A DNA stretch of 64,000 bases from Escherichia coli (GTDB lineage Bacteria > Pseudomonadota > Gammaproteobacteria > Enterobacterales > Enterobacteriaceae). Of the stretch, positions 48,269 through 62,100 are shown piece after piece (the first letter of the stretch is position 1; each line of letters opens with the position of its first letter). The stretch is taken from assembly GCF_024223415.1 (NCBI RefSeq), contig NZ_CP100500.1; one strand, written 5' to 3'. Under the pieces are notes generated by a model. That model was given only the letters and a program-made list of their open reading frames with translations. It was not told the DNA's origin and did no database searches. Made by a program: the position numbers and the translations under genes.

Positions 48269-49249
48269 ATGAACGCAATAATATCGCCTGATTATTACTA
48301 TGTTCTTACCGTTGCTGGTCAGTCTAATGCCATGGCGTATGGCGAAGGACTGCCATTACCGGACAGGGAAGATGCGCCTCATCCCAGAATTAAACAATTA
48401 GCGAGATTTGCGCATACGCATCCCGGAGGCCCGTCATGTCACTTTAACGACATTATTCCACTGACTCACTGCCCACACGATGTTCAGGATATGCAGGGTT
48501 ATCACCATCCTCTGGCAACGAATCATCAAACACAGTACGGCACCGTTGGCCAGGCACTGCATATTGCACGGAAATTACTGCCCTTTATTCCTGATAACGC
48601 AGGGGTTCTCATCGTTCCGTGTTGCCGTGGCGGATCGGCTTTTACCGCGGGCAGCGAAGGGACATATTCAGAACGGCACGGAGCCAGCCATGATGCTTGT
48701 CGTTGGGGAACGGATACTCCGCTATACCAGGATTTAGTCAGCAGAACGCGAGCCGCATTGGCAAAAAATCCGCAGAACAAATTCCTCGGCGTATGCTGGA
48801 TGCAAGGCGAATTTGACTTAATGACCAGTGACTACGCGTCACACCCTCAACACTTTAATCATATGGTTGAAGCCTTTCGTAGGGATCTAAAACAATACCA
48901 TTCTCAGCTTAATAATATTACTGATGCGCCCTGGTTTTGCGGCGATACCACCTGGTACTGGAAAGAAAATTTCCCTCATGCGTATGAAGCTATTTATGGC
49001 AATTACCAAAATAATGTTTTAGCCAATATTATTTTCGTCGACTTCCAGCAACAAGGTGAAAGAGGACTGACGAACGCGCCTGATGAAGACCCGGACGATT
49101 TAAGCACGGGATATTACGGTTCAGCGTACCGGTCACCGGAGAACTGGACGACGGCACTGAGAAGCAGCCATTTCAGCGCGGCAGCCCGTCGGGGGATTAT
49201 TTCTGACAGGTTTGTAGAAGCAATTTTGCAGTTTTGGCGCGAAAAGTGA
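48269..49249 (+). CDS. nanS: 9-O-acetyl-N-acetylneuraminate esterase NanS
   Basis: ORF track 48242..49249; start MNAIISPDYYYVLTVAGQSNA at 48269; about 326 aa. Confidence 0.85.
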   Translation: MNAIISPDYYYVLTVAGQSNAMAYGEGLPLPDREDAPHPRIKQLARFAHTHPGGPSCHFNDIIPLTHCPHDVQDMQGYHHPLATNHQTQYGTVGQALHIARKLLPFIPDNAGVLIVPCCRGGSAFTAGSEGTYSERHGASHDACRWGTDTPLYQDLVSRTRAALAKNPQNKFLGVCWMQGEFDLMTSDYASHPQHFNHMVEAFRRDLKQYHSQLNNITDAPWFCGDTTWYWKENFPHAYEAIYGNYQNNVLANIIFVDFQQQGERGLTNAPDEDPDDLSTGYYGSAYRSPENWTTALRSSHFSAAARRGIISDRFVEAILQFWREK

Positions 49250-49379
49250 GCGTTCATTAATTTGATTTATTCGCATCCATCAACGCTTTTAACTCCTCCG
49301 GCGTGCGGCACTATAACGACTTCCACAACAAGGAGCCATTTTCTTATACCACTTTCAGTGACCATCCGCTTATGCCACC

Positions 49380-49790
49380 ACCCTCTACGCAACTGTTTGC
49401 AGAGCACCTTCCCACCGAGTGGATACAGCACTTCCTGACGCTTTCTGCTCATGCGACCGTTCGTCGTCTTAACCTGAGCGTGGATGGCGAAGCGGGGATG
49501 AACCTGCTGGCGCCCGCAGCGCTGTCACCCAGGCGCGTCAGCGCGTGGGGGCCGCCCCGGTGGAATGGCTCTTCCGCCAGACCGCACAGACATGGGGCGC
49601 GGAACGTTACCTGAAGGATGACTGGCACGGCCTGCAACTTTTTGCCATTGATGGCGCACAGTTCAGGACACCTGATGAACCCGAGCTGCGTGAATATTAT
49701 GGCTCTGCCAACACATCCACTGAGCGGCAGAGCGCCTACCCCGTCATGCGTCTGGTGGCGTTAATGAATCTGGGAATCACATTCTACTGA
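49380..49790 (+). pseudogene. Remnant of an IS4-family transposase gene (N-terminal region, frameshifted and truncated)
   Basis: Two consecutive frames (49303..49614, 49545..49790) give ...TVRRLNL... and ...WHGLQLFAIDGAQFRTPDEPE...YPVMRLVALMNL, resembling the IS4 transposase N-terminal LTLLAIDGVFWRTPDTPE...YPQVKMVCQMEL region from memory; no intact ORF or terminal IRs seen. Confidence 0.45.
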
Positions 49791-50742
49791 ATGCCATGAC
49801 CGCGCCTACCAGCGGAGCGATACGGCGTGAGGCAACAAAAGCGGCGTCAGAGATCAGCTTTAAGTTCGCGTTCCAGTTTATCGTGACAGAAATGATAGTG
49901 CTGGGAAACACGGCGTCACCGGGGACTATCCCGAAACGACTGGAGCATCTGCGGGGGCTCTGGAAGTGGTGTTCATAACAAAACGCCCCCGACCATCAAG
50001 GGCGAGGGCGGTTAAGATATCAAAAACCCGTTATCCTGTGAAACACAGTGCCGCCCCGATTAAGTGAACGGCATTGTGTTTCTGAGGGACCTTAATTTTC
50101 CCTGATTCTCTGACGTTCCTTACCATTGATATTTCCTTCATTCCTCACCAGAGAAATAAAAAATCACTATACTCATCAAAATATGAGATTACCTTTATTC
50201 AGGTGATCACCTTACTATTTTTTACGGAAAATAAATTATGAATAACAAGAAATCACTGACAAACCACCTGTAAAATGTCAATCATTTTAGTTCAATTGCC
50301 TTTGTCATGATTATCTTTTTATCGTCCTGACGATACTATTAACAATTGCAATTTTTATACCCCTCCTGAACAAATAGAAAAGAACTAATATATTCGTTTA
50401 TAATTCTGGTAATCCTGGCATCATACGTTTAAAACTTAAGATATTTATTTTATCATCATCATGGTTCCAGAGACTATTGGTCAGCTGGAAATGCCAGCCT
50501 TTTCGTGCCAGCTATATTTGTCCAGTGTGTCACCCCATCCAAAAATCATCCACATCCTGACGTTACGTTAGATATAGAGAAAACAGGTTGTACTGTGCAA
50601 TATGCAAACCGCATAAGCGAATATAATTTCTAAGTTGATATTGTCTGGCTGTTGGGAGCTAAGCAATATAAATATCGCCAGTTGCCAGAACGGTTATATA
50701 GACCAGGAGCGTTTCGGCTCCTGGCCTGTTTTGGACATATTA

Positions 50743-52857
50743 TCAGTCAGCCACTAATAGCGGACTAGGGACACCAGATGATGAAACAAACAGCCCTTTT
50801 ACGGCACGGGTTGCAGCCACATGCAGTAACGCGCGCTCATTAAATAATGCATCACGCTGTTCAACGGGATCATCGGATGCTAATGCTTTTATTTCCGGCA
50901 CAACGCCTTCGTTAATCCCCACCAGGAACACATACTGGAACTCAAGCCCTTTAATACGGTGCATCGTTGCAACCCGCACGCCAGGGCGTGCATCGCTGTC
51001 ACCGCTATCATTGCCTAAATTAAATGTCTCAATTCCGGCGTCATTCAGTGCTGATGCGTAGCGGTCACAAGCATGTTTAGTACGCGCAGTAATGCAGATA
51101 TCCTGAGAACGAACCTGATTCGCCAGCAATGCCTGAATTTGCTTGACGAGCGTTGCAGCCTCTTCTTTGAAATCTGCCGCATGCGTAATCATGGGCTTTT
51201 CCCCGTGCAGTAATGACAAATAATCATTACTGGTATCCGCTTCGCCATCGAGGTTATCAACCTTCACACCAGTTAACAGCCCAACAGCAAATTGACGCGT
51301 CTCTTCTGTGGTCCGATAGTTAATCTTCAATTTTTTACTGCGACGACCACGGACGTTAATACCACACTGACCAAGAACGACCTTATTGCGATAAATACGC
51401 TGATGCCCATCCCCGACAATAAACAGATCGTTGGGCGACTCGGGAACCAGGCTGCGAATAAGAGTAAATGCCGGGGCACCGATATCTTGAGCTTCATCGA
51501 CCACAATACTGCTATAAGGTAGTTGGACCTGCTTTTCTTTAAACAGAACAATAGCCTCATGCATGGCATCGCCCATTTCGCGCAGTTTGGCACGCGCCAT
51601 TTGTGCTCTGAATTCTTCAAAGACTGGCCAGATTTTCGCCCGTTGAATACGGGATAACGCTGTACCACGTCCAACCCGGCTGACTTTGAGGTATTCCTCC
51701 CGGGTGTAAACCGCATTTGGCTGGACAACGCGTTGCCACTCTTCAGCATAGAAATTATCAGGTAGCCCCAGTTCGGCAGGTGCCTGCTGCAAGGCATAGT
51801 TCCAGCATTTGCGTCGCCCTTCATCGCTGTCGTATACCACGCGGAAATCATAACCGTGGCGTTTTAGTTGGTCGCTCATCCAGGCATCAATGTTAACGAC
51901 GTCAATACGCGCCATCTCTTCTCGCGTACACAACCGCTGGAGATTAGCGCGAATATCTGCCGCCAGGTTACGCGTAAAGGTCGTGAAAAGTACCTTCTTA
52001 CCGGGTTTATCTGCCAGACGCTGAGATAACCACCGCGCACGGTGCATCGCAACAACCGTTTTCCCTGTACCTGCACCGCCCAGTACTCGTACCGGACCAT
52101 TAGCGGGCGACTCCACCAGTTTTCGCTGGCTCGGATGCAGAAATACACGCCATTTTTCTAAAGGCGCATTAAGCATCTGCAACAGCTCCTGTTCATTTTC
52201 AACGACATGGAAGCGACGTTTACTTCGTTCAATCGCCTCCATAAAGTCGTTGGTATCAACAGGCTCATCACGATGATCGTTAAACTCTTCCAGCACTTCC
52301 TGGTAATCCAGCCCTTCTGCCAGCCAGTGCAGAGGTTCCCAGGCTTCTGCTGGCATTATGCTTTCAAGTTGGTTAAGCCCGGCTTCATCGGTAAGCGCCA
52401 TCACCTGATCAATAAAGACAGGCGGCACGCCCAGGGCCAGAATCTGTTCCGCGCTGTAAGCCGCGAAGAGTTTCGGTTTATCAACCACCGCTTCCGGTGC
52501 CGGTTTGATATAGCTAATATCAATAACCTGAATCGCGCCGGTAACTGGGTGAATCGAACAATCATGCCGCCGCGCCCAGTCGTATGCTTCGTCGTGTTTA
52601 TCCACCCACATCAGCATATACAGGGCACCCTGTTCAGGTTTCAGAACAATGCCGCGATAAGTTTGATCGATTCGCACCGAATGGACATTTTTACTGCGCG
52701 CATCGTGGATCTTTTCATAGTTAAGTCCATTACTGGTCGGGTCCTGACGGAATTTGGAGATGAATTCCTGCACCTTTTTTTGCTGTGCTTTTGGGATCCG
52801 CGCGAATGCGCCCAGAAAACCATCAGAAAGTGCCACCTTGGGCGTTTGCACCGTCAT
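50743..52857 (-). CDS. UvrD/Rep-like SF1 helicase (704 aa) with about 250-aa N-terminal domain of unknown function; third gene of candidate defence operon
   Basis: Walker A LGGAGTGKT (aa 259-267), Walker B/motif II VVDEAQD, C-terminal motif MHRIKGLEFQYVFLV typical of UvrD/PcrA family; ATG overlaps upstream gene stop (ATGA at 52854-52857). Confidence 0.85.
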   Translation of the reverse strand: MTVQTPKVALSDGFLGAFARIPKAQQKKVQEFISKFRQDPTSNGLNYEKIHDARSKNVHSVRIDQTYRGIVLKPEQGALYMLMWVDKHDEAYDWARRHDCSIHPVTGAIQVIDISYIKPAPEAVVDKPKLFAAYSAEQILALGVPPVFIDQVMALTDEAGLNQLESIMPAEAWEPLHWLAEGLDYQEVLEEFNDHRDEPVDTNDFMEAIERSKRRFHVVENEQELLQMLNAPLEKWRVFLHPSQRKLVESPANGPVRVLGGAGTGKTVVAMHRARWLSQRLADKPGKKVLFTTFTRNLAADIRANLQRLCTREEMARIDVVNIDAWMSDQLKRHGYDFRVVYDSDEGRRKCWNYALQQAPAELGLPDNFYAEEWQRVVQPNAVYTREEYLKVSRVGRGTALSRIQRAKIWPVFEEFRAQMARAKLREMGDAMHEAIVLFKEKQVQLPYSSIVVDEAQDIGAPAFTLIRSLVPESPNDLFIVGDGHQRIYRNKVVLGQCGINVRGRRSKKLKINYRTTEETRQFAVGLLTGVKVDNLDGEADTSNDYLSLLHGEKPMITHAADFKEEAATLVKQIQALLANQVRSQDICITARTKHACDRYASALNDAGIETFNLGNDSGDSDARPGVRVATMHRIKGLEFQYVFLVGINEGVVPEIKALASDDPVEQRDALFNERALLHVAATRAVKGLFVSSSGVPSPLLVAD

Positions 52858-55800
52858 TTGTCACCTCCGGACAGATGTTGCAATGTATTTTCGTCAATTG
52901 GCCCGAATGCAACGTGCCAACCTCTGGTTGTGAATAATGGAATAAATTCTTGATTATCAATAATCAATGCCCATTTTTGTGATGGCCAGGCGAGATCGGC
53001 TTCCGCAATAATTTCACCTTCATCATTTTGCAATTCGTAGCCGAGAGTCGGCGCAGAGAGAGAATGAGACTGAAGCAACGCGATCTCTTCAGCGCTTAAT
53101 AAGCCAAACTCAATAATCTCAGCCCAACTCTCATCAGTCTCTGGTACTGCCTCTGGCGTTGCCGAAACTTTAGTGTCAACGCTTTCCTGCGGTAAATGCA
53201 CGGCTTTACGGCTGGTAAAGGTCATATCCGGCAGGAACTGTAACAGGTTTACCAGTCGCCAGAAGCCATTGAGTCCCGCTTCATAACCGTCATCCTGCGT
53301 ATAGCGATCGTCAAAACAGATATGCAAACGCAGCCAGCTGCGCATTTGTGCGACGCTGGTCGTCGGTTTAATGGCTTGTTGTGGCAACACCGAAGCCAGC
53401 TCAATAAATTGCTGCGATGAGTTACAGCTATCGAGTAAACCACCAAAGACAAACGGTTCGTCTGGCAAAAGCTCTGCTAGCCGCCAGGCTGGCGCGTTTT
53501 CCTGCATTTCATAGGCATACTTTTGTTTCGTTCCCGCGTCCTGTGACTTCTTCACATCCAACCACACCCAGGCATGTGCAGCAGCCATTCTCTGCCATAA
53601 CTGCGTTCTTCCGCCCGGATCGGCGAGATAATCCAGCAGCAGTGCAAAACTGTTGCGTTCCCGGAACGACGCTTCAAGGGCCGCAAAGTTGGTATCGTGA
53701 AACAGGTTATAAAACTTAGGCTGTTTCATATCCGGGTTATGCCCAAGTCCCAGGACATCCTGAACATGTTTAAGCCCAGGCTCTTTGAGATCGGCCCACG
53801 TGACTGTCCACACCCAGAAATTACCGCTATCCCGAATCGCCTGGCGTTTTTGCACATCCTCTGCGACGCTATTTTTGTGGAACGCAAAGCCATCAAGGAA
53901 AATAGCCACCGGTTTAATGACATCAGACTGCATAAGCGGATATAGCACGTAATCCGGGCGACAAGGGATCCCCACCGCCTCTTTAGCGCCTAAATCCACC
54001 TGAGCTTTAAGATGCCAGCTCATCATCGGTTCGCTGCGGGTGTTAATAATCCACCCAGCGCCCTGATGCGCGTAACTGCGACTGACAATCAGGTTTTTAT
54101 TTTCTTGCAGGCAGCTAATAAACCGTTTTTCCAGCTCACTGCCCATCATGGCTTCGAGGGAAATGTTTTTGATGGAATCAATTACCCGTATCGAATCTCT
54201 TGCCTGCAAAATTTTCGCCAGCAAGAGACGCGCCTGATCGCGGGAGACATACTTCATGCGCCCACGGTCACGGTAAGCGTAAACGCAACGATAACAACCA
54301 TCTTTATGCGTATCATTGTTGCAACTGCATTCCACTATTGCCTGATAGGCCAGTTCAAGTAATTTCAGCAAATTGTCGGGAGTGCGCATCAGCTCTTTAA
54401 GAGAACCAGTTCCCCCCGGGACGGTATCGTAAATCACCAGATACTGCCTCCAGGATTCGCCTTCATTTTCCGGCTCGCGGTACACAACGCCTTTCAGGTG
54501 ATCGACATTCCCCTTGAAGTAATGTTTAAGGCCGAGCTGGATCGCCGCCCCAAGAGAAGCCTCCACGACACGGTCATTACTGTAACTGCTTACCGGGAGC
54601 AGAATACGCAACGCTTCTGACTCCAGCTGGCGATAGAGATAGAGATAATCTTCGAACTTCGCCTTTTCCGGTTCCGTGCGATATTTGCAGCTCAAATCAT
54701 GACGTGGTTCATGATCGCGAGGACGCTGCACCATGCCGCACCCGAGGCAAACTTTAAACCCGGTTCGCTTCTTCGCTTCTCCGGCAATCATCAACTCATT
54801 GGCATCATCCGCCATTTTGCCGAAGTTGATATCCCGCAGGGTGACTTTGCTTAAAAATTCAAAACCAAACGGAACTTCGCCTTCCTCAATCGCGTATGCC
54901 GCCGATACATCTTCTTTTTCGAAACTAACCAATAGCTGACGCTGGAAGAAAGCAGGTTCACGGCTGTCGCTATCGTCGCTGATCTGGCTATCACGTGCGC
55001 TGGCGCGGGCATAAACCTGGCGAAGTTTCAGCAGCGTGGTTTTTTGTCCGGCATCGGCCCACCCCGGTGTGCCACATTTCGGGCAATATTTATGCTGGTC
55101 GCCCGTCTGGTCGATATTTTCGCTGTAGTTACAGTGGCTACAGATACGCCAGTTCTCCGGCTCAGAGACCTTCAGGTCTATCTGCTCAATTTCAACTTTA
55201 TGCCCACCGGCATAGAAATTATTCAGCGGAGCCAGCTCAGCCAGCGCCGTTGATGCCGGGCGTTCATATTCGAAAGTGGTGTTTTGATATTCACGCGCTT
55301 CCCCGCCTTCTTTACGCCGCCAGAGCACAGAACGTAACGTAATACCGGCTTCCGGGAAGGCGTAGTTAGGCAGCAGACCTTCATCCGTGAGGAAATTCAG
55401 CGTTTGCTTATTGTTGATTTGATTGACCAGCGCCATCAGCGCCTGCCGTTCTGAAGTCAGTTCGCGCATATCGCTGTCAAAGTTTTGATCGCGCGGCGCG
55501 TTCTCCAGTTTATCGATGCTGCGCTTGAGTTTATCGATGCGTGAGCGCAAAGATTTGCGATCTTCCACCAGCAGTTTTAACGCTTCTTCGATACGCTGCA
55601 CCAGCGAACGTTGCCCTGGCGCGCCCTGAAGATAAGACAACAGCTGTTGGCGAGTTTCTGCGGCAAGATCGGGGAAGATCGCCGTAAATTGTGCAGCAAT
55701 CTCCGCATGATGCTGTTCGATATATCGCAGTAAGTTATACGGAAAACCCGATTTACGCCCGAACTCCAGCTCATCCAGCATCTGTTTGACGTTTTTACAG

Positions 55801-58800
55801 ATAGCGGATTCTGGTACACCGGTTTTCACCCAGTTATCCATACAAAAAGCTGCCAGCTGGCGTTCGAGAATAGCCGTTGCATTGAGGAAGACGCCAGGAG
55901 CCTGCACCTGGCCCTGCATCATCTCCAGCGGTTCTTCAAAGAAAAACTGATCGTGCGGGTTCCCTTCTGCCACGGTAATGTTTAACGCGTTACCATCTTT
56001 ACGACCGGCGCGACCAATACGCTGCAAGTAGTTGGCCTGAGCAGGTGGGACAGAACAGAGTAAAACGGTGGAAAGATCGCCAACGTCAATACCCATCTCC
56101 AGCGTCGGTGTTGCCGACAACAGGTTGATATTCCACGGTTGGTTGCCGCGGTAGAACGATTTTTCGGTGGCTTCGCGATCTTCACGGCTAAGCAGCCCCG
56201 TGTGTTCTGCGCCCTGTACGCGCGCGATGTCCATGTTCTCCCAACGCCAGGTCGCCGTATTGTCGACTTCCTGGTAACGACCTTCACAACGTAAAGAGAG
56301 ACAAGGCGCATTACGCCACTGCCAGCCTTGATCGGCCGGAGCCCGGACAACCTCACGGCAACATGAACAATTAAGCTGAACGACGTCACGGCTCACCACC
56401 AGCGCCGAAGGCACCAGTCCCCAGGCTTCACGCCCTTTGGTGTCAAAATCTTTTACTACTCCGGCTATTTTCAACGCCGTAAACAGGCGTCGTAACACTG
56501 TTTCCGCAACGCTACTGATAAACAGATTATTGCCGTTACTCAGCGTGCGATTGATCCAATGCTGATACCAACTGGGGTTAGACTTCGCGCCAATCAGGCG
56601 ATGGAAACCATTAATTTTTTCAAACGACGCATAAGCCGGTTTACGCGTTTTCGGACCGATAGAAGGCATATAGCGCGAGGTACGCTCTTTTTGCGTCATC
56701 ATAAAGGTCGTGCCATCACGGCGATAACTTTCGAACGCCGGATGCATAACGGCCCCGGCCTGGCGTTGATACCAGATAACCCCCAGCGCCAGGTGCGCGA
56801 CCTGCTCGACGCTCACACCGGACATCTCATCACCCAGCTCTTCACAAAGCTGTTGATGCAGGGCGGTAATTGCCGGATTAAAGCGTTCTTTATCCACTCC
56901 GGCAACGGCATAACCGGTGGCTTCCAGCGTACGTCCGATACGCGCGCGCAGGGTGAATTCGCTGTACACCTCCCAGTCGAGGCGCAGGGAAACCAGCTCC
57001 GGCAGATCGGAGTTCTCCGCCAGTTTGCCTTCATTTTTCAGCATCTGATAATCATTCAGCCACTGCATATTTGGTGCGATGAAGTTCGCTGCAAAATGAG
57101 CATCGTCCGGTGAACGTTCACGCGTTTGTTGGCAAACACGCGCCGCGAACGCATCCAGCGGTAATGTCTCTTTTTCGCCAAGAACACTGGCGATTTGCCC
57201 ACGAATCATCAGCGGCCAGGTACGGGCAGTAAAGAAGCTGGCACGATGCGCGGCGTCTTGTACCGAGTCAGAAAACGTAATCAGCTTTTTATGTTCGTTG
57301 AACTGGCTGCCATAAAGCTGGTGAATCATCACCGCCGACAAACTGGCAGCCCGTGACCCCAGGATCGAAATCCCCTGTTTGCTGTTGCAGTACGGGCATT
57401 CATTAGCAAACTCCAGCTCGTCCTTACGCTCTTTGAGCATATCCGGGATCAGTACCTGCAACAGTTCCGTATGACCGCAATGTCCACACTGGACGCTGGA
57501 CTGTCGGTTCAGTTTCAGACAGGTAGGACACAGTTTCTGGTGTGCGCCACTGACCGCTTTTTCGTTGTTATCCGGGAAAGCAAGGACGATGGAGCGTCCT
57601 TTTTCAAAGAACTGGCGATAAATGCCGTCGAGGTCTGTTTCCAGCTGAACGCTTTGCCCATGACGCAGGCTGGCCCAGCCAGTTGCGTGGCAGTCACGGC
57701 AGTGGATAACCGGCAAATAGTGTTCGCGATCTTCCACCGCCACATCATCGGCAAACACCAGTCGGGGCGTTTTCGCCACGCTGGCGACCAGACGACGCAT
57801 CTCACGAAGCCACAACTGGGAGCGCAGTTGCACAAACGGCAGCACCGGACGCGCTTTCTTCGCCTGGAGACGTTTTTGCCGATCGTGTTCCGTTTCCGGT
57901 ACTTCGAGACGTGCCTGTGCGATCAGCGCCAGAATGCTTTGCAGCACGCGTCGGGCATGGTCGGCGCTTTCTGCCAGCATGACCTGGAGATTTTCCAGAC
58001 ACTCTCGTTCAGAGAGGATCCCGCCTTGCAGATCATGGAGTAAGACATGCATCACGCTGTGGCGGCGTAACAGTGACCCCAGCGCAATACGCTTTTCACG
58101 CCCGTCGTCGCTCTCCAGATCGTCCGGGAGTTGCAAGTCGCTGTCGGGGAACCACAAAGGGATTTGCCCGTTAAGATACGCTACCGGGGTAGCGTAACTC
58201 TGCGGGTCCAGGGCCGAAGCGACCTCCGGCCCCGGATACTGACTGTACGCAATGGCGTAATCCTGCAAGTACTCCGCTGCCGTGTAGCGATCTTCGCGAA
58301 TAACGGCGTCATCGGTAAACGGCTGGTCAAAGATTGTTTTTGCGTAATCGAGCAGTTGCCCCAGCTCGTCGCCGACGGTAGCTGATGTCCCGACGCAGGC
58401 GAATCGTTGGTTATCTACACCTATGTGATGCTTCAGACGTCGCACCAGACAGGCCAGATCCGACCCTTGCGCGCCATCAAACGTATGCAATTCATCCACG
58501 ACCAGGTAACGCAATGAACCGGGCTGGTTGTAACGCCAGAGCGGCTGATCGCCAGGGCGCATCAGCAGGTAGTCGAGCATTTTGTAGTTGGTCAACAGGA
58601 TGTCCGGCGGGCTTTCGCGCAGCGTGTGCTTGCAGGTAATGACCTTTTCTGCCGACATTTTTTTGCTGGGTTCGATTTCGCTGTCGCCGACAAACAGGCC
58701 GACGGTCACCTTGCCATGCAGTTGTGTATCGCTGGCGATGGTTTTGGCGAAACGGCTGGCCTGATCGGTTGCCAGGGCGTTCATCGGGTAGATGATAATC

Positions 58801-59195
58801 GCTTTAACCCCGGCTTGTGACGCGCCCGCGCAGTGGTTGAGCAGCGGGAACATAAAGCATTCTGTTTTACCGGAGCCGGTACCGGTAGCAACCAGCGTCG
58901 GCTGTGGCGCGTCGCTTCCCAGACGCTGAAATGCCCGGGCCTGATGCGCGTGCGGCGGGAACGGCAGCGTCAGATTAGGGAAGAAATTCAGCGGTAAGTC
59001 ACTTTTACGAAACGGCAACTGGGCGGAAAGGTATGGTCCTTTCAGCAGCGTTTCGGGCTGGGCCAGAAATTGCTCCAGCATTGAGACATTATCGTTATTC
59101 TCACCGTTAAACAGCGGACTGTTTAGCGGGAACGCCGCCCGTAAAAAGGCGGCAACGCTGTCGGCGACCTGCCGACTGACAACGGATGGCAGCAT
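52854..59195 (-). CDS. Giant multidomain SF2 (DExH, Lhr-like) helicase, 2113 aa, with zinc-ribbon/Cys clusters (DUF1998-like) and C-terminal Vsr/DUF559-like endonuclease motif; second gene of candidate defence operon
   Basis: Motif I ATGTGSGKT (58863-58883), Ia YPMNALATDQ, II VVDELH (58485-58496), V LEMGIDVGD and VI QRIGRAGR about 800 aa later; Cys clusters CSHCN...CPKCG and CSC...DGCYRC; FLDGFAFH...RQAIRDSG near aa 1740-1800 (about 53796-53978); start codon overlaps stop of upstream gene. Confidence 0.85.
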   Translation of the reverse strand: MLPSVVSRQVADSVAAFLRAAFPLNSPLFNGENNDNVSMLEQFLAQPETLLKGPYLSAQLPFRKSDLPLNFFPNLTLPFPPHAHQARAFQRLGSDAPQPTLVATGTGSGKTECFMFPLLNHCAGASQAGVKAIIIYPMNALATDQASRFAKTIASDTQLHGKVTVGLFVGDSEIEPSKKMSAEKVITCKHTLRESPPDILLTNYKMLDYLLMRPGDQPLWRYNQPGSLRYLVVDELHTFDGAQGSDLACLVRRLKHHIGVDNQRFACVGTSATVGDELGQLLDYAKTIFDQPFTDDAVIREDRYTAAEYLQDYAIAYSQYPGPEVASALDPQSYATPVAYLNGQIPLWFPDSDLQLPDDLESDDGREKRIALGSLLRRHSVMHVLLHDLQGGILSERECLENLQVMLAESADHARRVLQSILALIAQARLEVPETEHDRQKRLQAKKARPVLPFVQLRSQLWLREMRRLVASVAKTPRLVFADDVAVEDREHYLPVIHCRDCHATGWASLRHGQSVQLETDLDGIYRQFFEKGRSIVLAFPDNNEKAVSGAHQKLCPTCLKLNRQSSVQCGHCGHTELLQVLIPDMLKERKDELEFANECPYCNSKQGISILGSRAASLSAVMIHQLYGSQFNEHKKLITFSDSVQDAAHRASFFTARTWPLMIRGQIASVLGEKETLPLDAFAARVCQQTRERSPDDAHFAANFIAPNMQWLNDYQMLKNEGKLAENSDLPELVSLRLDWEVYSEFTLRARIGRTLEATGYAVAGVDKERFNPAITALHQQLCEELGDEMSGVSVEQVAHLALGVIWYQRQAGAVMHPAFESYRRDGTTFMMTQKERTSRYMPSIGPKTRKPAYASFEKINGFHRLIGAKSNPSWYQHWINRTLSNGNNLFISSVAETVLRRLFTALKIAGVVKDFDTKGREAWGLVPSALVVSRDVVQLNCSCCREVVRAPADQGWQWRNAPCLSLRCEGRYQEVDNTATWRWENMDIARVQGAEHTGLLSREDREATEKSFYRGNQPWNINLLSATPTLEMGIDVGDLSTVLLCSVPPAQANYLQRIGRAGRKDGNALNITVAEGNPHDQFFFEEPLEMMQGQVQAPGVFLNATAILERQLAAFCMDNWVKTGVPESAICKNVKQMLDELEFGRKSGFPYNLLRYIEQHHAEIAAQFTAIFPDLAAETRQQLLSYLQGAPGQRSLVQRIEEALKLLVEDRKSLRSRIDKLKRSIDKLENAPRDQNFDSDMRELTSERQALMALVNQINNKQTLNFLTDEGLLPNYAFPEAGITLRSVLWRRKEGGEAREYQNTTFEYERPASTALAELAPLNNFYAGGHKVEIEQIDLKVSEPENWRICSHCNYSENIDQTGDQHKYCPKCGTPGWADAGQKTTLLKLRQVYARASARDSQISDDSDSREPAFFQRQLLVSFEKEDVSAAYAIEEGEVPFGFEFLSKVTLRDINFGKMADDANELMIAGEAKKRTGFKVCLGCGMVQRPRDHEPRHDLSCKYRTEPEKAKFEDYLYLYRQLESEALRILLPVSSYSNDRVVEASLGAAIQLGLKHYFKGNVDHLKGVVYREPENEGESWRQYLVIYDTVPGGTGSLKELMRTPDNLLKLLELAYQAIVECSCNNDTHKDGCYRCVYAYRDRGRMKYVSRDQARLLLAKILQARDSIRVIDSIKNISLEAMMGSELEKRFISCLQENKNLIVSRSYAHQGAGWIINTRSEPMMSWHLKAQVDLGAKEAVGIPCRPDYVLYPLMQSDVIKPVAIFLDGFAFHKNSVAEDVQKRQAIRDSGNFWVWTVTWADLKEPGLKHVQDVLGLGHNPDMKQPKFYNLFHDTNFAALEASFRERNSFALLLDYLADPGGRTQLWQRMAAAHAWVWLDVKKSQDAGTKQKYAYEMQENAPAWRLAELLPDEPFVFGGLLDSCNSSQQFIELASVLPQQAIKPTTSVAQMRSWLRLHICFDDRYTQDDGYEAGLNGFWRLVNLLQFLPDMTFTSRKAVHLPQESVDTKVSATPEAVPETDESWAEIIEFGLLSAEEIALLQSHSLSAPTLGYELQNDEGEIIAEADLAWPSQKWALIIDNQEFIPLFTTRGWHVAFGPIDENTLQHLSGGDK

Positions 59196-62100
59196 CAGGC
59201 GTTCTCCTTATCTTGTGCAAAGAACGCCCAGGCCACTTTGTAGTCGTCTTCGCGATCTGGCTTGATAAACGGAGCCTGCCAGGTGACGGTGCGGCGCTCG
59301 CCTTCGTCGCTGCGGGTATAGTCATCAAAGGTGACGCTGACGGTACCGGTTTTCAGATGTTTGACATCATCCCAGCCGATGGCTTGATCGGTGCAGTCAC
59401 CGCCGGTCCACTCCGGGCTGTCGACGTTAAAGACAAAGCTGTTTTTCAGATCAGCTTTACGGGCGGTACGCGGCAGACCGACGCCCACCAGCCCTTTGCT
59501 TGGGGTAAAGATGATGCGGCCGTTTTGGTCGTACCAGGTGTCCGCTTCGTACTGGCGCATCACCGGGAACTGTACACGGTAAATGGTAAGCAGCTCTTCG
59601 AGAGTTAACCCCAGCGCCTGTGCCACCAGCACGTCGATTTCCACCAGCGCCTGACGACGACTGTAGTCGGAGCGTAAGGCGCAGTTACGCTGCCACTCTG
59701 GGGTCAGATTGGTGAAGAAATCTTGTGGCAGCAGCGGGAGATCGCGGCTCCAACGCTGGGTGTTGAAGTCTGGGGTGTAGCAGGATTGCCAGAGATCGGC
59801 GTAATCTTTCGTTAACACATTCAAAGCTAATGCTCTTGAGTTTGCACTCATTAGCTCAACATAAGGGAAGCCACGCAATGTTGATTCATAAACATCCGCC
59901 CGTCCTGTTGTTTTCAAATAAAAATCAGCCACTATTGAATGGCAAAATGCAGAGAAACTTAGCAGGTTTATTGGCTCTCTAAATGTTGTTGAGAGTACAG
60001 GGTGTATATGAGCAACGTGCTTTGGAACTATGCTGGATATCATCGAGCGTTCTGATGATGCCCCAAACATTCTCCGATTAACAAAACGATAATAATCCGT
60101 CACCTTCCTCGGCTCGTCTTCATCCTGCTCTTTCCACGAAACCCGTGGGGTGCGCTTTGCATACTCCTGTGCATCACATGCCGGAATGTAGTTAGTTCGC
60201 GGCAGGTAATCGTCGGGCAGGGTTAATAAATCAAGGCAATCATAATGGCTATTTGCCTCACAGAGAGCTCTTGGTGTCTTATTGAAAGGATTACCCACGA
60301 AGAAATGGGGACCAGACAATACCCATTGAGAAGCATCTTTTGGATACATTGTTTTACGCTCGATAGTGCCATCAATTTGCTGATTTGTTTCATGCCACAT
60401 TTCCAGAGAAAAATACTGGCCTTGCAAATCGCCTAATCGCTTCGGCTGATTGGCAAATTTTTCCAATACCGCGACAAGTTGCTCTGCGTGCAAAGCGGGA
60501 AGACGAGCCTGTAATGCTGGCGTGTCGGGTTCATCATACAAACGAGCAAATAAAGCTAGCTGCTCTTTCGTGACACGAATAAGCCTGGATTTATGACCTT
60601 TAGTATTCCATCGGCTATAGTAAACATCTTTTATATAACCTTCTTCCTTAATGCCACCAACCAATCCATCACCTGAATGCTCAAAACTCTCATCAAGAGT
60701 TGAAGGAATAAAAAGATTATTAATATTAATAAACTCCACGTCGTTCGATTTGGTCATAGAGTAAACATGTGTCCCAAATTTCATTCGACCGTGATCATTT
60801 GTTCCAACAAATAGAGAAAACTCATTTTGATATTGGCAATGTAGACGTAACCTTGGATAGATCTCTTCTCTGAAGAGCCCTCCCTTAGGATCGTCATATA
60901 CCCCCTCTGGGTGAACAAATCCTGCCACGCCTTTCTCTGCCCCCAGACGCCAGGCCTGAGGCAGGAAGCATTTATACAAGTTGGTCTGCACCCCGCGCAG
61001 TACCGGGTAGTTTTGCTGCGCATTGAGGAAGTTTTGCATCCCTTCACAGCCTTCATACTCGCTGCGCCAGGCCGCTTCCAGCGCCGGGATCTGGTTAAAG
61101 GTATCAATACGCAACGTTGCCAGCTTCGATGCACTCAGCTTACGCAGCACAAATTCCGGCTCGTAATCACCCAGCACGCCCGCTTCCTGCCATTCCACTT
61201 TCAGCCACGGCGGGTTTCCGAGCATCAGGTCAAAACCGCCGCGCTCGGCAAACAGGTCGCAGAACTCCAGATCCCAGTGGAAGAAACGGTGCTGCTTTCT
61301 CAGGGCATCGACAATCGCCAGACGCGGCAAATGGCGGAACAGCACATCGGTTTTCAGACGACCAGCAACGGAAAACAGCGAAGACTCTTCTCGCAGCAGG
61401 CCTTCTTCGGCAAACAGATCGCCAGTAGTGCGCTCCGCAACTTCAGTGACTTTTTCCGTAATCACAATCCCGTCGAGCAGGGTTTCAATCTCAAACAACC
61501 AGGTACCGCGATCCGGTAACTCATCGGCTTTGTCGATCGGCCAGAACCACAGCGCGCACCAGTAGTCCATCACCCAACGCAGCTTCTGGTAGGCGCTGTT
61601 ATCTTCAAGACGACCGCTAAAGGTTTCATCTTTACTGCTCAGCGAAGAACGCGTCTGCTCGCTGTTTTCTGCCGGCCACACCGGGTAGCTGTCGGCGGTT
61701 TTCAGACGTTCTGCTTTAAGTTGCTGGCGATAGGTGTTCCACAGTGCTTCCACCTTTTCGCTGATACGCTGCACATCAGCAATCTCATGCCCGGCAAAGC
61801 TTTTAATAAACTCTTTGCGCCAGCTGTCCAGCGCTTTGAAGTCATCCGGATAACGCTGCTTAACAGTTTTATCGCTGTAGTTAGCCATACCGCCGTCGGG
61901 CAGCAGGAAGTGGAAAATCTGCGTCTCTTCACGCGGCGTGTTCATCGCCAGTTCGACCGGCTCGCTGTTAAGCCAGCTAGGATCTTTGGCTTTTTTGTAG
62001 GTCAGTTCGCTCTTGTTGAACACCTGACGGCGCGCGCCCACCAGCGAGTTACCGCAGTGCAGCTGGTAACCAAACCACGGTACAAAGGCATCGCCACTGA

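Follow-up and report, generated by a model that had tools for sequence, protein, structure and literature searches.

The ARMADA type II operon and its giant helicase

The stretch of DNA analysed here (the window, 64,000 nucleotides of Escherichia coli contig NZ_CP100500.1) carries on its minus strand armB, armC and armD of an ARMADA type II operon (Table 1). ARMADA II systems follow a strict gene order of BrxHII-like helicase, PglX-like methyltransferase, YprA-like helicase and RelE-GajB-like helicase (PMC12458937), and this order is found again at the locus, the last three genes lying in the window and armA past its edge, where it is present in the record of E. coli O157:H7 Sakai and in that of the near-identical NCTC10444 (a frameshifted pseudogene). 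NCTC10444 and Sakai share the same layout, with armA, druE, druH and zorABE adjoining. The locus is an armA-armB-armC-armD operon of ARMADA type II, a system found in 525 of 5426 complete E. coli genomes (about 10%), O157:H7 included.

The armB product matches the PADLOC models REase_MTase_IIG (4.3e-289) and DrmMI (3.8e-57) and carries the Eco57I/MmeI methyltransferase motifs of Pfam. Its frame is open at the window edge, the full gene being seen in another record; a suspected in-frame stop near the edge is not present, and the ORF runs off the window. Stop and start codons of armB and armC overlap as TGATG, preceded by AAGGAG, and those of armC and armD as ATGA. The armD product matches PADLOC GajB (2.5e-36) and Pfam UvrD-helicase (4.8e-23). 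Its N-terminal extension has been described as RelE-like, a putative RNase (PMC12458937), and gives a weak match to a RelE-like PHROG (E 0.032).

The product of armC, the giant helicase of the original prediction, has its best PADLOC matches in DruE3 (4.6e-104) and DruE1 (8.2e-97), shows DEAD/DEAH helicase motifs and similarity to DruE, DrmA and DpdJ, and has the architecture characteristic of ArmC, a YprA-like helicase carrying DUF1998 and, C-terminally, one or more Vsr-type nuclease domains. It is equal in length and 99.6% identical to ECs_5263 of Sakai, with 9 substitutions among 2113 residues, and its Walker A lysine (K110) and Walker B aspartate (D234) have the numbering of the published ArmC mutants (PMC12458937). 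The exact sequence is deposited as WP_112037742.1, of which the RefSeq product name says only 'DEAD/DEAH box helicase'. Anti-phage defence has been reported for orthologues, those of E. coli NCTC 12900, ATCC 8739 and EDL933, not for this allele. With orthologues about 99.6% identical, the non-abortive defence needs all four genes as well as the ATPase (Walker A/B) motifs of ArmC (PMC12458937), and in a study of the EHEC island OI-172 deletion of armC sensitised the host to phage while complementation restored resistance (10.1101/2025.09.22.677730).

Table 1. Features of the locus, with positions in the window.
Feature	Positions	Strand	Description
armB	59195..64000	-	PglX/type IIG-like N6-adenine DNA methyltransferase; first 42 codons past the window edge
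armC	52854..59195 (stop codon included)	-	2113-aa YprA/DruE-like SF2 helicase-nuclease of ARMADA type II
MrfA zinc-binding (MZB/DUF1998) domain	54282..54551	-	aa 1549-1638; Pfam PF09369, E 4.7e-13; directly upstream of the nuclease
Vsr-like PD-(D/E)xK endonuclease domain	53784..54257	-	aa 1647-1804, roughly 160 aa
E1689 codon (first helix, SELEKRF)	54129..54131	-	Vsr Glu25; 137/137
Q1732 codon	54000..54002	-	Vsr Gln42; 136/137
Segment of the original prediction	53796..53978	-	aa 1740-1800; from translation, model secondary structure and alignment to Vsr residues 43-70
D1748 codon (RPDY)	53952..53954	-	Vsr Asp51, metal ligand; 137/137; aligned by hhalign
D1768-G1769-F-A-F-H1773	53877..53894	-	Vsr H64-G65-C-F-W-H69; D, G and H each 137/137; aligned by hhalign
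D1780 codon (start of second helix)	53856..53858	-	Vsr Asp97; 137/137; extended hhalign alignment pairs NSVAED with KNVERD
Middle tail domain	53181..53783	-	about aa 1805-2005; mixed alpha/beta; 'inactive EEP?' in the literature
Terminal domain	52857..53126	-	about aa 2024-2113; degenerate Vsr-like fold, the second in ArmC; homologue of the ZorE C-terminal extension
armD	50743..52857	-	GajB/UvrD-like helicase; N-terminal extension of about 240 aa

A Vsr-like domain behind the zinc module

Translated on the minus strand, positions 53978-53796 give AVGIPCRPDYVLYPLMQSDVIKPVAIFLDGFAFHKNSVAEDVQKRQAIRDSGNFWVWTVTW, which contains exactly the peptide in which the original prediction had recognised the core of a Vsr-like endonuclease, and which forms part of an intact ORF. 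Reading the same positions on the plus strand was rejected, as it yields internal stop codons and an unrelated peptide. Two adjustments to the predicted position are needed. The segment does hold the motifs of a Vsr-like core, but it makes up no more than the last two thirds of the domain, with the helix of E1689 and residue Q1732 lying upstream; and the domain does not stand near the C-terminus of the helicase, as had been stated, since 309 residues forming two more domains come after it.

Modelling of aa 1647-1804 by AlphaFold2 (pLDDT 83), a kind of evidence by which the original prediction could have been refuted, returned a PD-(D/E)xK nuclease, with the alpha-beta-beta-beta-alpha-beta core of that superfamily at about aa 1683-1804 and a helical lead-in before it. 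Within the segment the model places strand beta2 (RPDY), strand beta3 and its loop (FLDGFAFH), a helix (EDVQKR) and strand beta4 (VWTVTW). The expected metal-ligand aspartate (D1748) sits at the second core strand and an Asp/His pair (D1768, H1773) on or after the third, all three at strand ends, while E1689 falls within helix 43-54 of the domain model. H1773 takes the place of the lysine of classical PD-(D/E)xK enzymes, and the domain belongs to the branch of the superfamily that uses His instead of Lys.

Residue by residue, the domain has equivalents of the Vsr catalytic Asp51, His69 and Asp97 as well as of Glu25 and Gln42. Of these, His69 is essential in Vsr (PMC4081097), Asp97 is a conserved residue of the catalytic site (PMC2677866), a role has been described for Glu25 (PMC4081097), and Gln42 has been discussed as well (PMC2677866, PMC4081097). 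The helix of E1689 is without confident hhalign alignment, and the residue was equated with Glu25 by its motif (LEKRF, against IEKRL in Vsr) and its position in the fold; the equation of Q1732 with Gln42 likewise relies on its place where the preceding strand ends, no confident hhalign columns covering it.

Profile comparison adds modest rather than strong support over the catalytic motifs. A profile of 43 family sequences was aligned by hhalign to the single E. coli Vsr sequence with an E value of 3e-4 and to an alignment of Vsr homologues with 8.6e-5 (score 33.2, probability 60%), pairing RPDY with RPDF and FLDGFAFH with FTHGCFWH, whereas 21 control alignments (one reversed and 20 column-shuffled versions of the Vsr alignment) scored 7-18 with E values of at least 0.038 (up to 0.97). 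A global-mode alignment was meaningless and was discarded. The published HHpred analysis agrees, assigning the domain to PF03852 with E 5.2e-5 as an 'active Vsr domain' (PMC12458937). The Vsr-like signature itself stands. The Vsr homologues are of low diversity (120 among the matches listed are 80-100% identical) and the resulting Vsr profile is consequently weak (Neff 1.7), which holds the hhalign probability to 60%.

Curated models passed the domain by. Pfam Vsr (PF03852) gave no match at E up to 10 with the C-terminal 800 aa, the domain alone or the 43 homologues, and neither did DUF559 (PF04480) or REase_MTES_1575 (PF18741) with ArmC at the same limit; NCBIfam, PADLOC and PHROGs models likewise returned nothing on the domain. 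Sequence searches of the PDB, with the single sequence and the family profile, found nothing at E up to 10, and Foldseek against the PDB gave only TnsA with a useful probability, with no match at E 0.001 and without recovering Vsr.

A chance match of motifs in an unrelated region of the helicase might be read from this silence of Pfam, from the shortness of the confident hhalign region (28 columns) and from its probability of only 40-60%. The far lower scores of the controls, the independent AlphaFold2 match to PD-(D/E)xK nucleases, the agreement with the published HHpred result and the exact coincidence of the motif residues with the invariant positions all speak against it, and with conservation, fold match and control alignments taken together such a reading is effectively refuted and retains next to no probability.

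Conservation of the catalytic residues was assessed in 137 diverse representatives that are only 30-47% identical to ArmC. These came from an exhaustive search of representatives, used in place of a word-indexed search for homologues of the 478-aa C-terminal region, which had returned only 5 proteins. E1689, D1748, D1768, G1769, H1773 and D1780 are invariant throughout, Q1732, R1784, W1796 and D1802 nearly so, and the spacing of the Asp, Asp-Gly and His motifs is exactly kept; at the position of Vsr Trp68 there is an aromatic residue, Tyr or Phe, in 124 of the 137. Loss of the catalytic residues in homologues had been named as a way for the prediction to fail, and instead there is no variation at the Asp, Asp-Gly, His and Asp positions. 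The catalytic set is, judging from this alignment, under purifying selection, whereas in the terminal Vsr-like domain of ArmC the catalytic motifs are gone. A profile comparison of the two domains matched only trivially overlapping end residues, and kinship between them at the sequence level was rejected; they are related at the level of the fold only.

These data also bear on the view that the nuclease fold is devoid of catalysis and was retained to bind DNA or RNA or to mediate contacts between proteins. The inactivated Vsr domains reported in DruE of Druantia types I and II (PMC12458937) would be precedents, as would eukaryotic RAP domains; the degenerate second copy in ArmC itself and the lack of any curated HMM match point the same way. 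The six residues of the Vsr-type active site, however, are invariant or nearly so across homologues this divergent, with a strictness absent from the degenerate terminal domain, and their motif spacing is fixed, which makes a silent domain highly improbable.

Proposed activity and its alternatives

The segment is most probably the catalytic core of a Vsr-like endonuclease domain in the ArmC helicase of ARMADA type II, and the domain is likely to be catalytically active with DNA as its substrate. In the mechanism proposed here, the SF2 helicase core and its OB-CON-DUF1998 canopy would load on phage DNA and translocate along it at the expense of ATP. The nuclease domain, fused straight after the DUF1998 zinc module, would hold Mg2+ through D1748, the backbone carbonyl of L1767 and D1768, and H1773, together with D1780, E1689 and Q1732, would position the scissile phosphate and the attacking water, so that one strand of the DNA is cut. 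Such helicase-coupled cutting could degrade or disable the invading genome while the cell survives. The domain would thus be expected to nick, making no double-strand breaks, and host DNA would presumably be spared through methylation by ArmB. A single active site can cut just one strand, which counts against an effector role, and a literature search found no paper in which the Vsr-like domain had been mutated or ArmC assayed for nuclease activity. The nuclease of DruE, by analogy, may be counted in favour of such a role for that of ArmC.

The original prediction went on to suppose that the domain, if active, provides a DNA-cleaving effector without a separate nuclease gene. The first part of this remains the preferred reading; the second needs qualifying because ArmD carries the putative RelE-like RNase domain. 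An alternative has to be weighed in which the nuclease is active without being the terminal effector, its nick or end processing serving to load the helicases or to license the system, much as the nick made by Vsr initiates repair, while the damage that stops the phage comes from the ArmD RNase, from host RecBCD or from the co-resident nucleases of DruE and ZorE. It is consistent with Vsr-family enzymes being single-site nickases (PMC4081097), with the RelE-like annotation of ArmD, weak as its PHROG match is, with the synergy of ARMADA II and the Druantia III of the same island, and with the linking of neighbouring systems by RecBCD-dependent processing. Against this, plasmid-borne ARMADA II alone protects BL21-AI, a Walker B mutant of ArmD is partly active (both PMC12458937), and EHEC needs ArmD less strictly than ArmC (10.1101/2025.09.22.677730); moreover, defence proceeds non-abortively and without metabolic shutdown (PMC12458937), which makes an RNase toxin a poor candidate for the main output. 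A licensing nuclease of this kind is accordingly considered unlikely.

A broader reading, held to be rather unlikely, gives ArmC two functionally distinct modules of Vsr fold, the first a nickase and the second a docking or recognition module. Here nicking by aa 1647-1804 would be strand-specific and gated by the helicase and, with ArmB methylation being read out, ARMADA would amount to a new type of translocating, methylation-sensing restriction machine. The terminal aa ~2024-2113 would not be a dead relic but a module for docking or for recognising DNA structure, common to ArmC and the ZorE of the neighbouring Zorya II; it would couple, physically or in function, the effectors of the three co-resident systems, and their synergy would thereby be explained.

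As to novelty, the domain is already known as a prediction from the bioRxiv preprint of Bell et al. 2025 (PMC12458937), which names it an 'active Vsr domain', and little is added beyond that work. What is new is the residue map (E1689, Q1732, D1748, D1768, H1773, D1780), the invariance of these residues and the relationship of the terminal domain to ZorE. The six mapped residues are exact targets for mutagenesis, and an inference made at the level of motifs proved accurate for a domain that Pfam, NCBIfam, PADLOC, PHROGs and the RefSeq product name all miss.

Comparison with known nucleases and defence systems

The closest known system is the published ArmC of ARMADA II (PMC12458937; 10.1101/2025.09.22.677730), which is of the same protein family, gene, operon and island and from which nothing of substance differs; its published domain order (helicase, DUF1998, 'active Vsr', 'inactive EEP?' and a second Vsr-like domain) is that seen here.

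With E. coli Vsr (PF03852; PDB 1CW0) the ArmC domain shares the fold class and the G-x3-H spacing, but several features set the two apart. Where Vsr has His64, ArmC has the invariant D1768, and the linker from the catalytic His to Asp97 comprises 27 residues in Vsr and 6 in ArmC. The zinc ligands of Vsr, Cys66, His71, Cys73 and Cys117, are missing from the ArmC domain, F1770 and N1775 aligning with Cys66 and His71; besides H1773, there is no conserved Cys or His in the domain among the 137 homologues. With His64 replaced by Asp and neither Cys nor His at the zinc-ligand positions, the chemistry of Vsr is not simply transferable to ArmC. The domain also lacks the N-terminal DNA-intercalating arm of Vsr and has an additional beta-hairpin and the helical lead-in. 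Vsr, finally, is a stand-alone repair enzyme that nicks specifically at T/G mismatches beside Dcm sites and whose gene adjoins dcm in K-12, whereas the ArmC domain is built into a 2113-aa helicase that a defence operon encodes together with a methyltransferase of the N6-adenine type.

DUF559 (PF04480; structure 3HRL) and PF18741 are Vsr-like domains that are often fused to the C-termini of helicases, and ArmC itself gave no match to either model at E up to 10; its consensus motifs presumably resemble those of PF18741. The catalytic domain of I-Bth0305I (PDB 3R3P), unlike that of ArmC, belongs to a stand-alone homing endonuclease of a mobile intron, without a helicase and with another biological role.

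DruE of type III Druantia, whose gene lies about 3 kb upstream in the same island, is a paralogous YprA-like giant helicase with DUF1998, and its C-terminus, as is predicted for ArmC, pairs an active nuclease domain with an inactive one. Its C-terminal PLD nuclease cleaves DNA and is needed for defence (PMC13192584; 10.64898/2026.05.13.724313). The two proteins differ in nuclease superfamily, PLD in DruE and PD-(D/E)xK in ArmC, and in their partners, the exonuclease DruH in the case of DruE, a methyltransferase and two more helicases in that of ArmC. Should the Vsr-like domain prove to be the effector, ARMADA would stand alongside Druantia III in the class of helicase-nuclease systems, set apart by the chemistry of its nuclease and by its methyltransferase partner.

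A predicted nuclease domain in the ArmC helicase

Residues 1647-1804 of ArmC, a giant YprA/DruE-like helicase, are best classed as a predicted Vsr-like, His-type PD-(D/E)xK nuclease domain, in preference to the Vsr or DUF559 family of Pfam. The peptide by which it was originally recognised had been quoted with no strand and is found on the minus strand, where window 53796-53978 translates as AVGIPCRPDYVLYPLMQSDVIKPVAIFLDGFAFHKNSVAEDVQKRQAIRDSGNFWVWTVTW and corresponds to residues 1740-1800 of the intact ORF; the plus-strand reading of this interval, an unrelated peptide containing a stop, was rejected. The description of the segment as near the C-terminus is loosely worded, 309 residues following the domain.

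When ArmC residues 1645-1830 were searched exhaustively against 1.84 billion representative proteins, 659 relatives were recovered at E <=0.001. The best 150 are ArmC-like proteins of ~2100 aa or their fragments, and their matches fall consistently at query positions 3-160, corresponding to residues 1647-1804. Among 137 of these, which share just 30-47% identity with ArmC, E1689, D1748, D1768, G1769, H1773, and D1780 are invariant, and S1651, S1686, L1688, F1692, Q1732, P1762, R1784, W1796, and D1802 are >95% conserved. Homologues thus keep the putative catalytic Asp, Asp-Gly, His, and Asp, and this invariant set disfavours a silent binding module, which is quite unlikely. A confident AlphaFold2 model (mean pLDDT 83.3, pTM 0.70) was built from an alignment of 43 sequences, and the modelled fold is an alpha-beta-beta-beta-alpha-beta restriction-endonuclease core of the PD-(D/E)xK type: the E1689 helix, three strands, a strand beginning just past D1748, and a strand ending just ahead of D1768 are followed by the H1773 loop, a helix from near D1780, and a last strand with W1796. 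In the proposed Foldseek comparison, this model recovered TnsA alone (prob 0.97-0.99) and nothing at E <=0.001.

Of the label Vsr/DUF559-like, the likeness to Vsr is supported by hhalign profile comparison and motif. Sequence HMMs from Pfam, NCBIfam, PADLOC, and PHROGs give no match to the domain, PDB sequence searches with it are empty, and weak Pfam REase_MTES_1575 matches occur in 5 of 43 homologues and not in ArmC. In hhalign comparison of the family profile with E. coli Vsr, GIPCRPDYVLYP...VAIFLDGFAFHK pairs with SLPGRPDFVVDE...CVIFTHGCFWHH, with E 3e-4 when Vsr is a single sequence and E 8.6e-5 when it is represented by 120 aligned close homologues (prob 60%), and the extended alignment places NSVAED opposite KNVERD. 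Resemblance to Vsr by chance is very improbable; control Vsr alignments, 20 of them column-shuffled and one reversed, reach scores of 7-18 versus 33 for the real one. With residue roles in Vsr taken from PMC4081097 and PMC2677866, ArmC D1748, D1768, G1769, H1773, and D1780 map to Vsr Asp51, His64, Gly65, His69, and Asp97, respectively, and E1689 and Q1732 map to Glu25 and Gln42 by local motif and fold position, not by confident hhalign columns.

A second, degenerate Vsr-like fold and a possible module shared with ZorE

A second AlphaFold2 model, covering ArmC residues 1800-2113 (pLDDT 86.5), contains two domains, a mixed alpha/beta one at ~1805-2005 and a compact alpha-beta-beta-beta-alpha-beta one at ~2024-2113, with a linker of low confidence between them. 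The latter, terminal domain and the C-terminal extension of ZorE, a protein of the Zorya II system encoded in the same island, are homologous by sequence comparison, the ArmC domain matching PADLOC ZorE2 (E 5.9e-9), NCBIfam ZorE (E 6.9e-5), residues 279-347 of ECs_5256 from E. coli O157:H7 Sakai (BLASTP, 33% identity, E 2e-9), and the ZorE extension itself (hhalign probability 96.7%, E 3.7e-10), which suggests a module shared between co-resident systems. A 2026 preprint describes the ZorE extension as 'nuclease-like', unassignable to a family, and linked to synergy with Druantia III, and does not name ArmC; a link of the extension to the Vsr-like fold and ArmC is absent from that preprint and from the passages covered of the other papers.

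Operon, distribution, and surroundings

The definition of ARMADA type II in Bell et al. 2025 (PMC12458937) identifies the operon as this system and its giant helicase as ArmC, whose Walker A Lys, K110, and Walker B Asp, D234, are the exact residues mutated in that study. The best PADLOC matches of the ORF are DruE3 (4.6e-104) and DruE1 (8.2e-97), with weaker matches to DrmA, DpdJ, and BrxH; the protein is identical in sequence to WP_112037742.1 and to Sakai ECs_5263 at 2104 of 2113 residues. Overlapping stop and start codons, TGATG between armB and armC with an AAGGAG Shine-Dalgarno sequence ahead (window 59191-59197) and ATGA between armC and armD (52854-52857), suggest that the three genes are translationally coupled. 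The N-terminal extension of ArmD (aa 1-239; 52140-52857, minus strand) has a weak RelE-like toxin match (PHROG E 0.032) and no Pfam match, and, as the published HHpred match has E 0.0085 (PMC12458937), its assignment as a RelE-like RNase is thinly supported.

Features of the ARMADA operon and the co-resident zorE
Feature	Position	Strand	Description
armB	59195-64000		PglX/type IIG-like N6-adenine methyltransferase, upstream of armC; the window edge falls within it and the gene continues beyond
armC	52854-59195	minus	2113-aa ORF, DruE-like helicase (PADLOC)
MrfA zinc-binding (DUF1998) domain	ArmC aa 1549-1638		Pfam
ArmC terminal domain	52857-53135	minus	aa ~2021-2113, degenerate Vsr-like
armD	50743-52857		GajB/UvrD-like helicase, downstream of armC
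zorE	L003:15327-16430		co-resident Zorya II, outside the window

armC is found in 525 of 5426 complete E. coli genomes and is plasmid-borne at 15 of 532 matching places. Annotated records give the order armD, armC, armB, armA, druE, druH, zorA/B/E, and the Sakai copy of this gene array is part of the phage-like element SpLE6. At 90% identity, the ArmC cluster comprises 3981 proteins, which come from E. coli, Klebsiella, Salmonella, Citrobacter, and Enterobacter and are all labelled merely 'DEAD/DEAH box helicase' or 'RNA helicase', so the nuclease domains are absent from public annotation. The closest complete genome, NCTC10444, has a reported identity of 100.0% over armC; its armA (L001:31276-34133, just past the right edge of the window) is annotated as a frameshifted pseudogene. 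As defence reportedly needs every one of the four arm genes, this strain may have an inactive ARMADA. Between the nan genes and armD (~48490-50070), the collinear NCTC10444 record has a sialate O-acetylesterase gene annotated as truncated and a transposase annotated as frameshifted, and Sakai carries a partial ISCro3 at the corresponding place, on the edge of SpLE6; this interval is probably the boundary of a mobile defence island.

Proposed action and comparison with DruE and Vsr

Near-identical ARMADA II orthologues defend against many phages non-abortively, requiring all four genes, the Walker motifs of ArmA and ArmC, and the NPPW motif of ArmB (PMC12458937), and armC deletion sensitises EHEC, with complementation restoring resistance in part (10.1101/2025.09.22.677730). 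The Vsr-like nuclease domain of ArmC was correctly recognised and was already known as a prediction; neither of these studies contains nuclease-residue mutants or cleavage assays, and a search of the literature collection used returned no further ARMADA or ArmC papers. For DruE, a paralogue, the helicase has been shown to engage junctions containing ssDNA, and the PLD nuclease at its C-terminus to cut DNA and to be required for defence (PMC13192584, 10.64898/2026.05.13.724313). ArmC would translocate along phage DNA and cut a strand at its Vsr-like site, where Mg2+ would be held by D1748, the L1767 carbonyl, and D1768, and phosphate and water would be positioned by H1773, D1780, E1689, and Q1732, host DNA presumably being spared through methylation by ArmB. 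That the nuclease is active and merely licenses or loads the system is unlikely.

Relative to Vsr, the cutting site proposed for ArmC carries Asp where Vsr has His64, a trait also of DUF559-type domains, and its linker from the His to the following Asp is 6 residues long, against 27 in Vsr. The positions of the Vsr zinc ligands carry neither Cys nor His in ArmC, and the ArmC domain adds a hairpin and a lead-in of helical structure.
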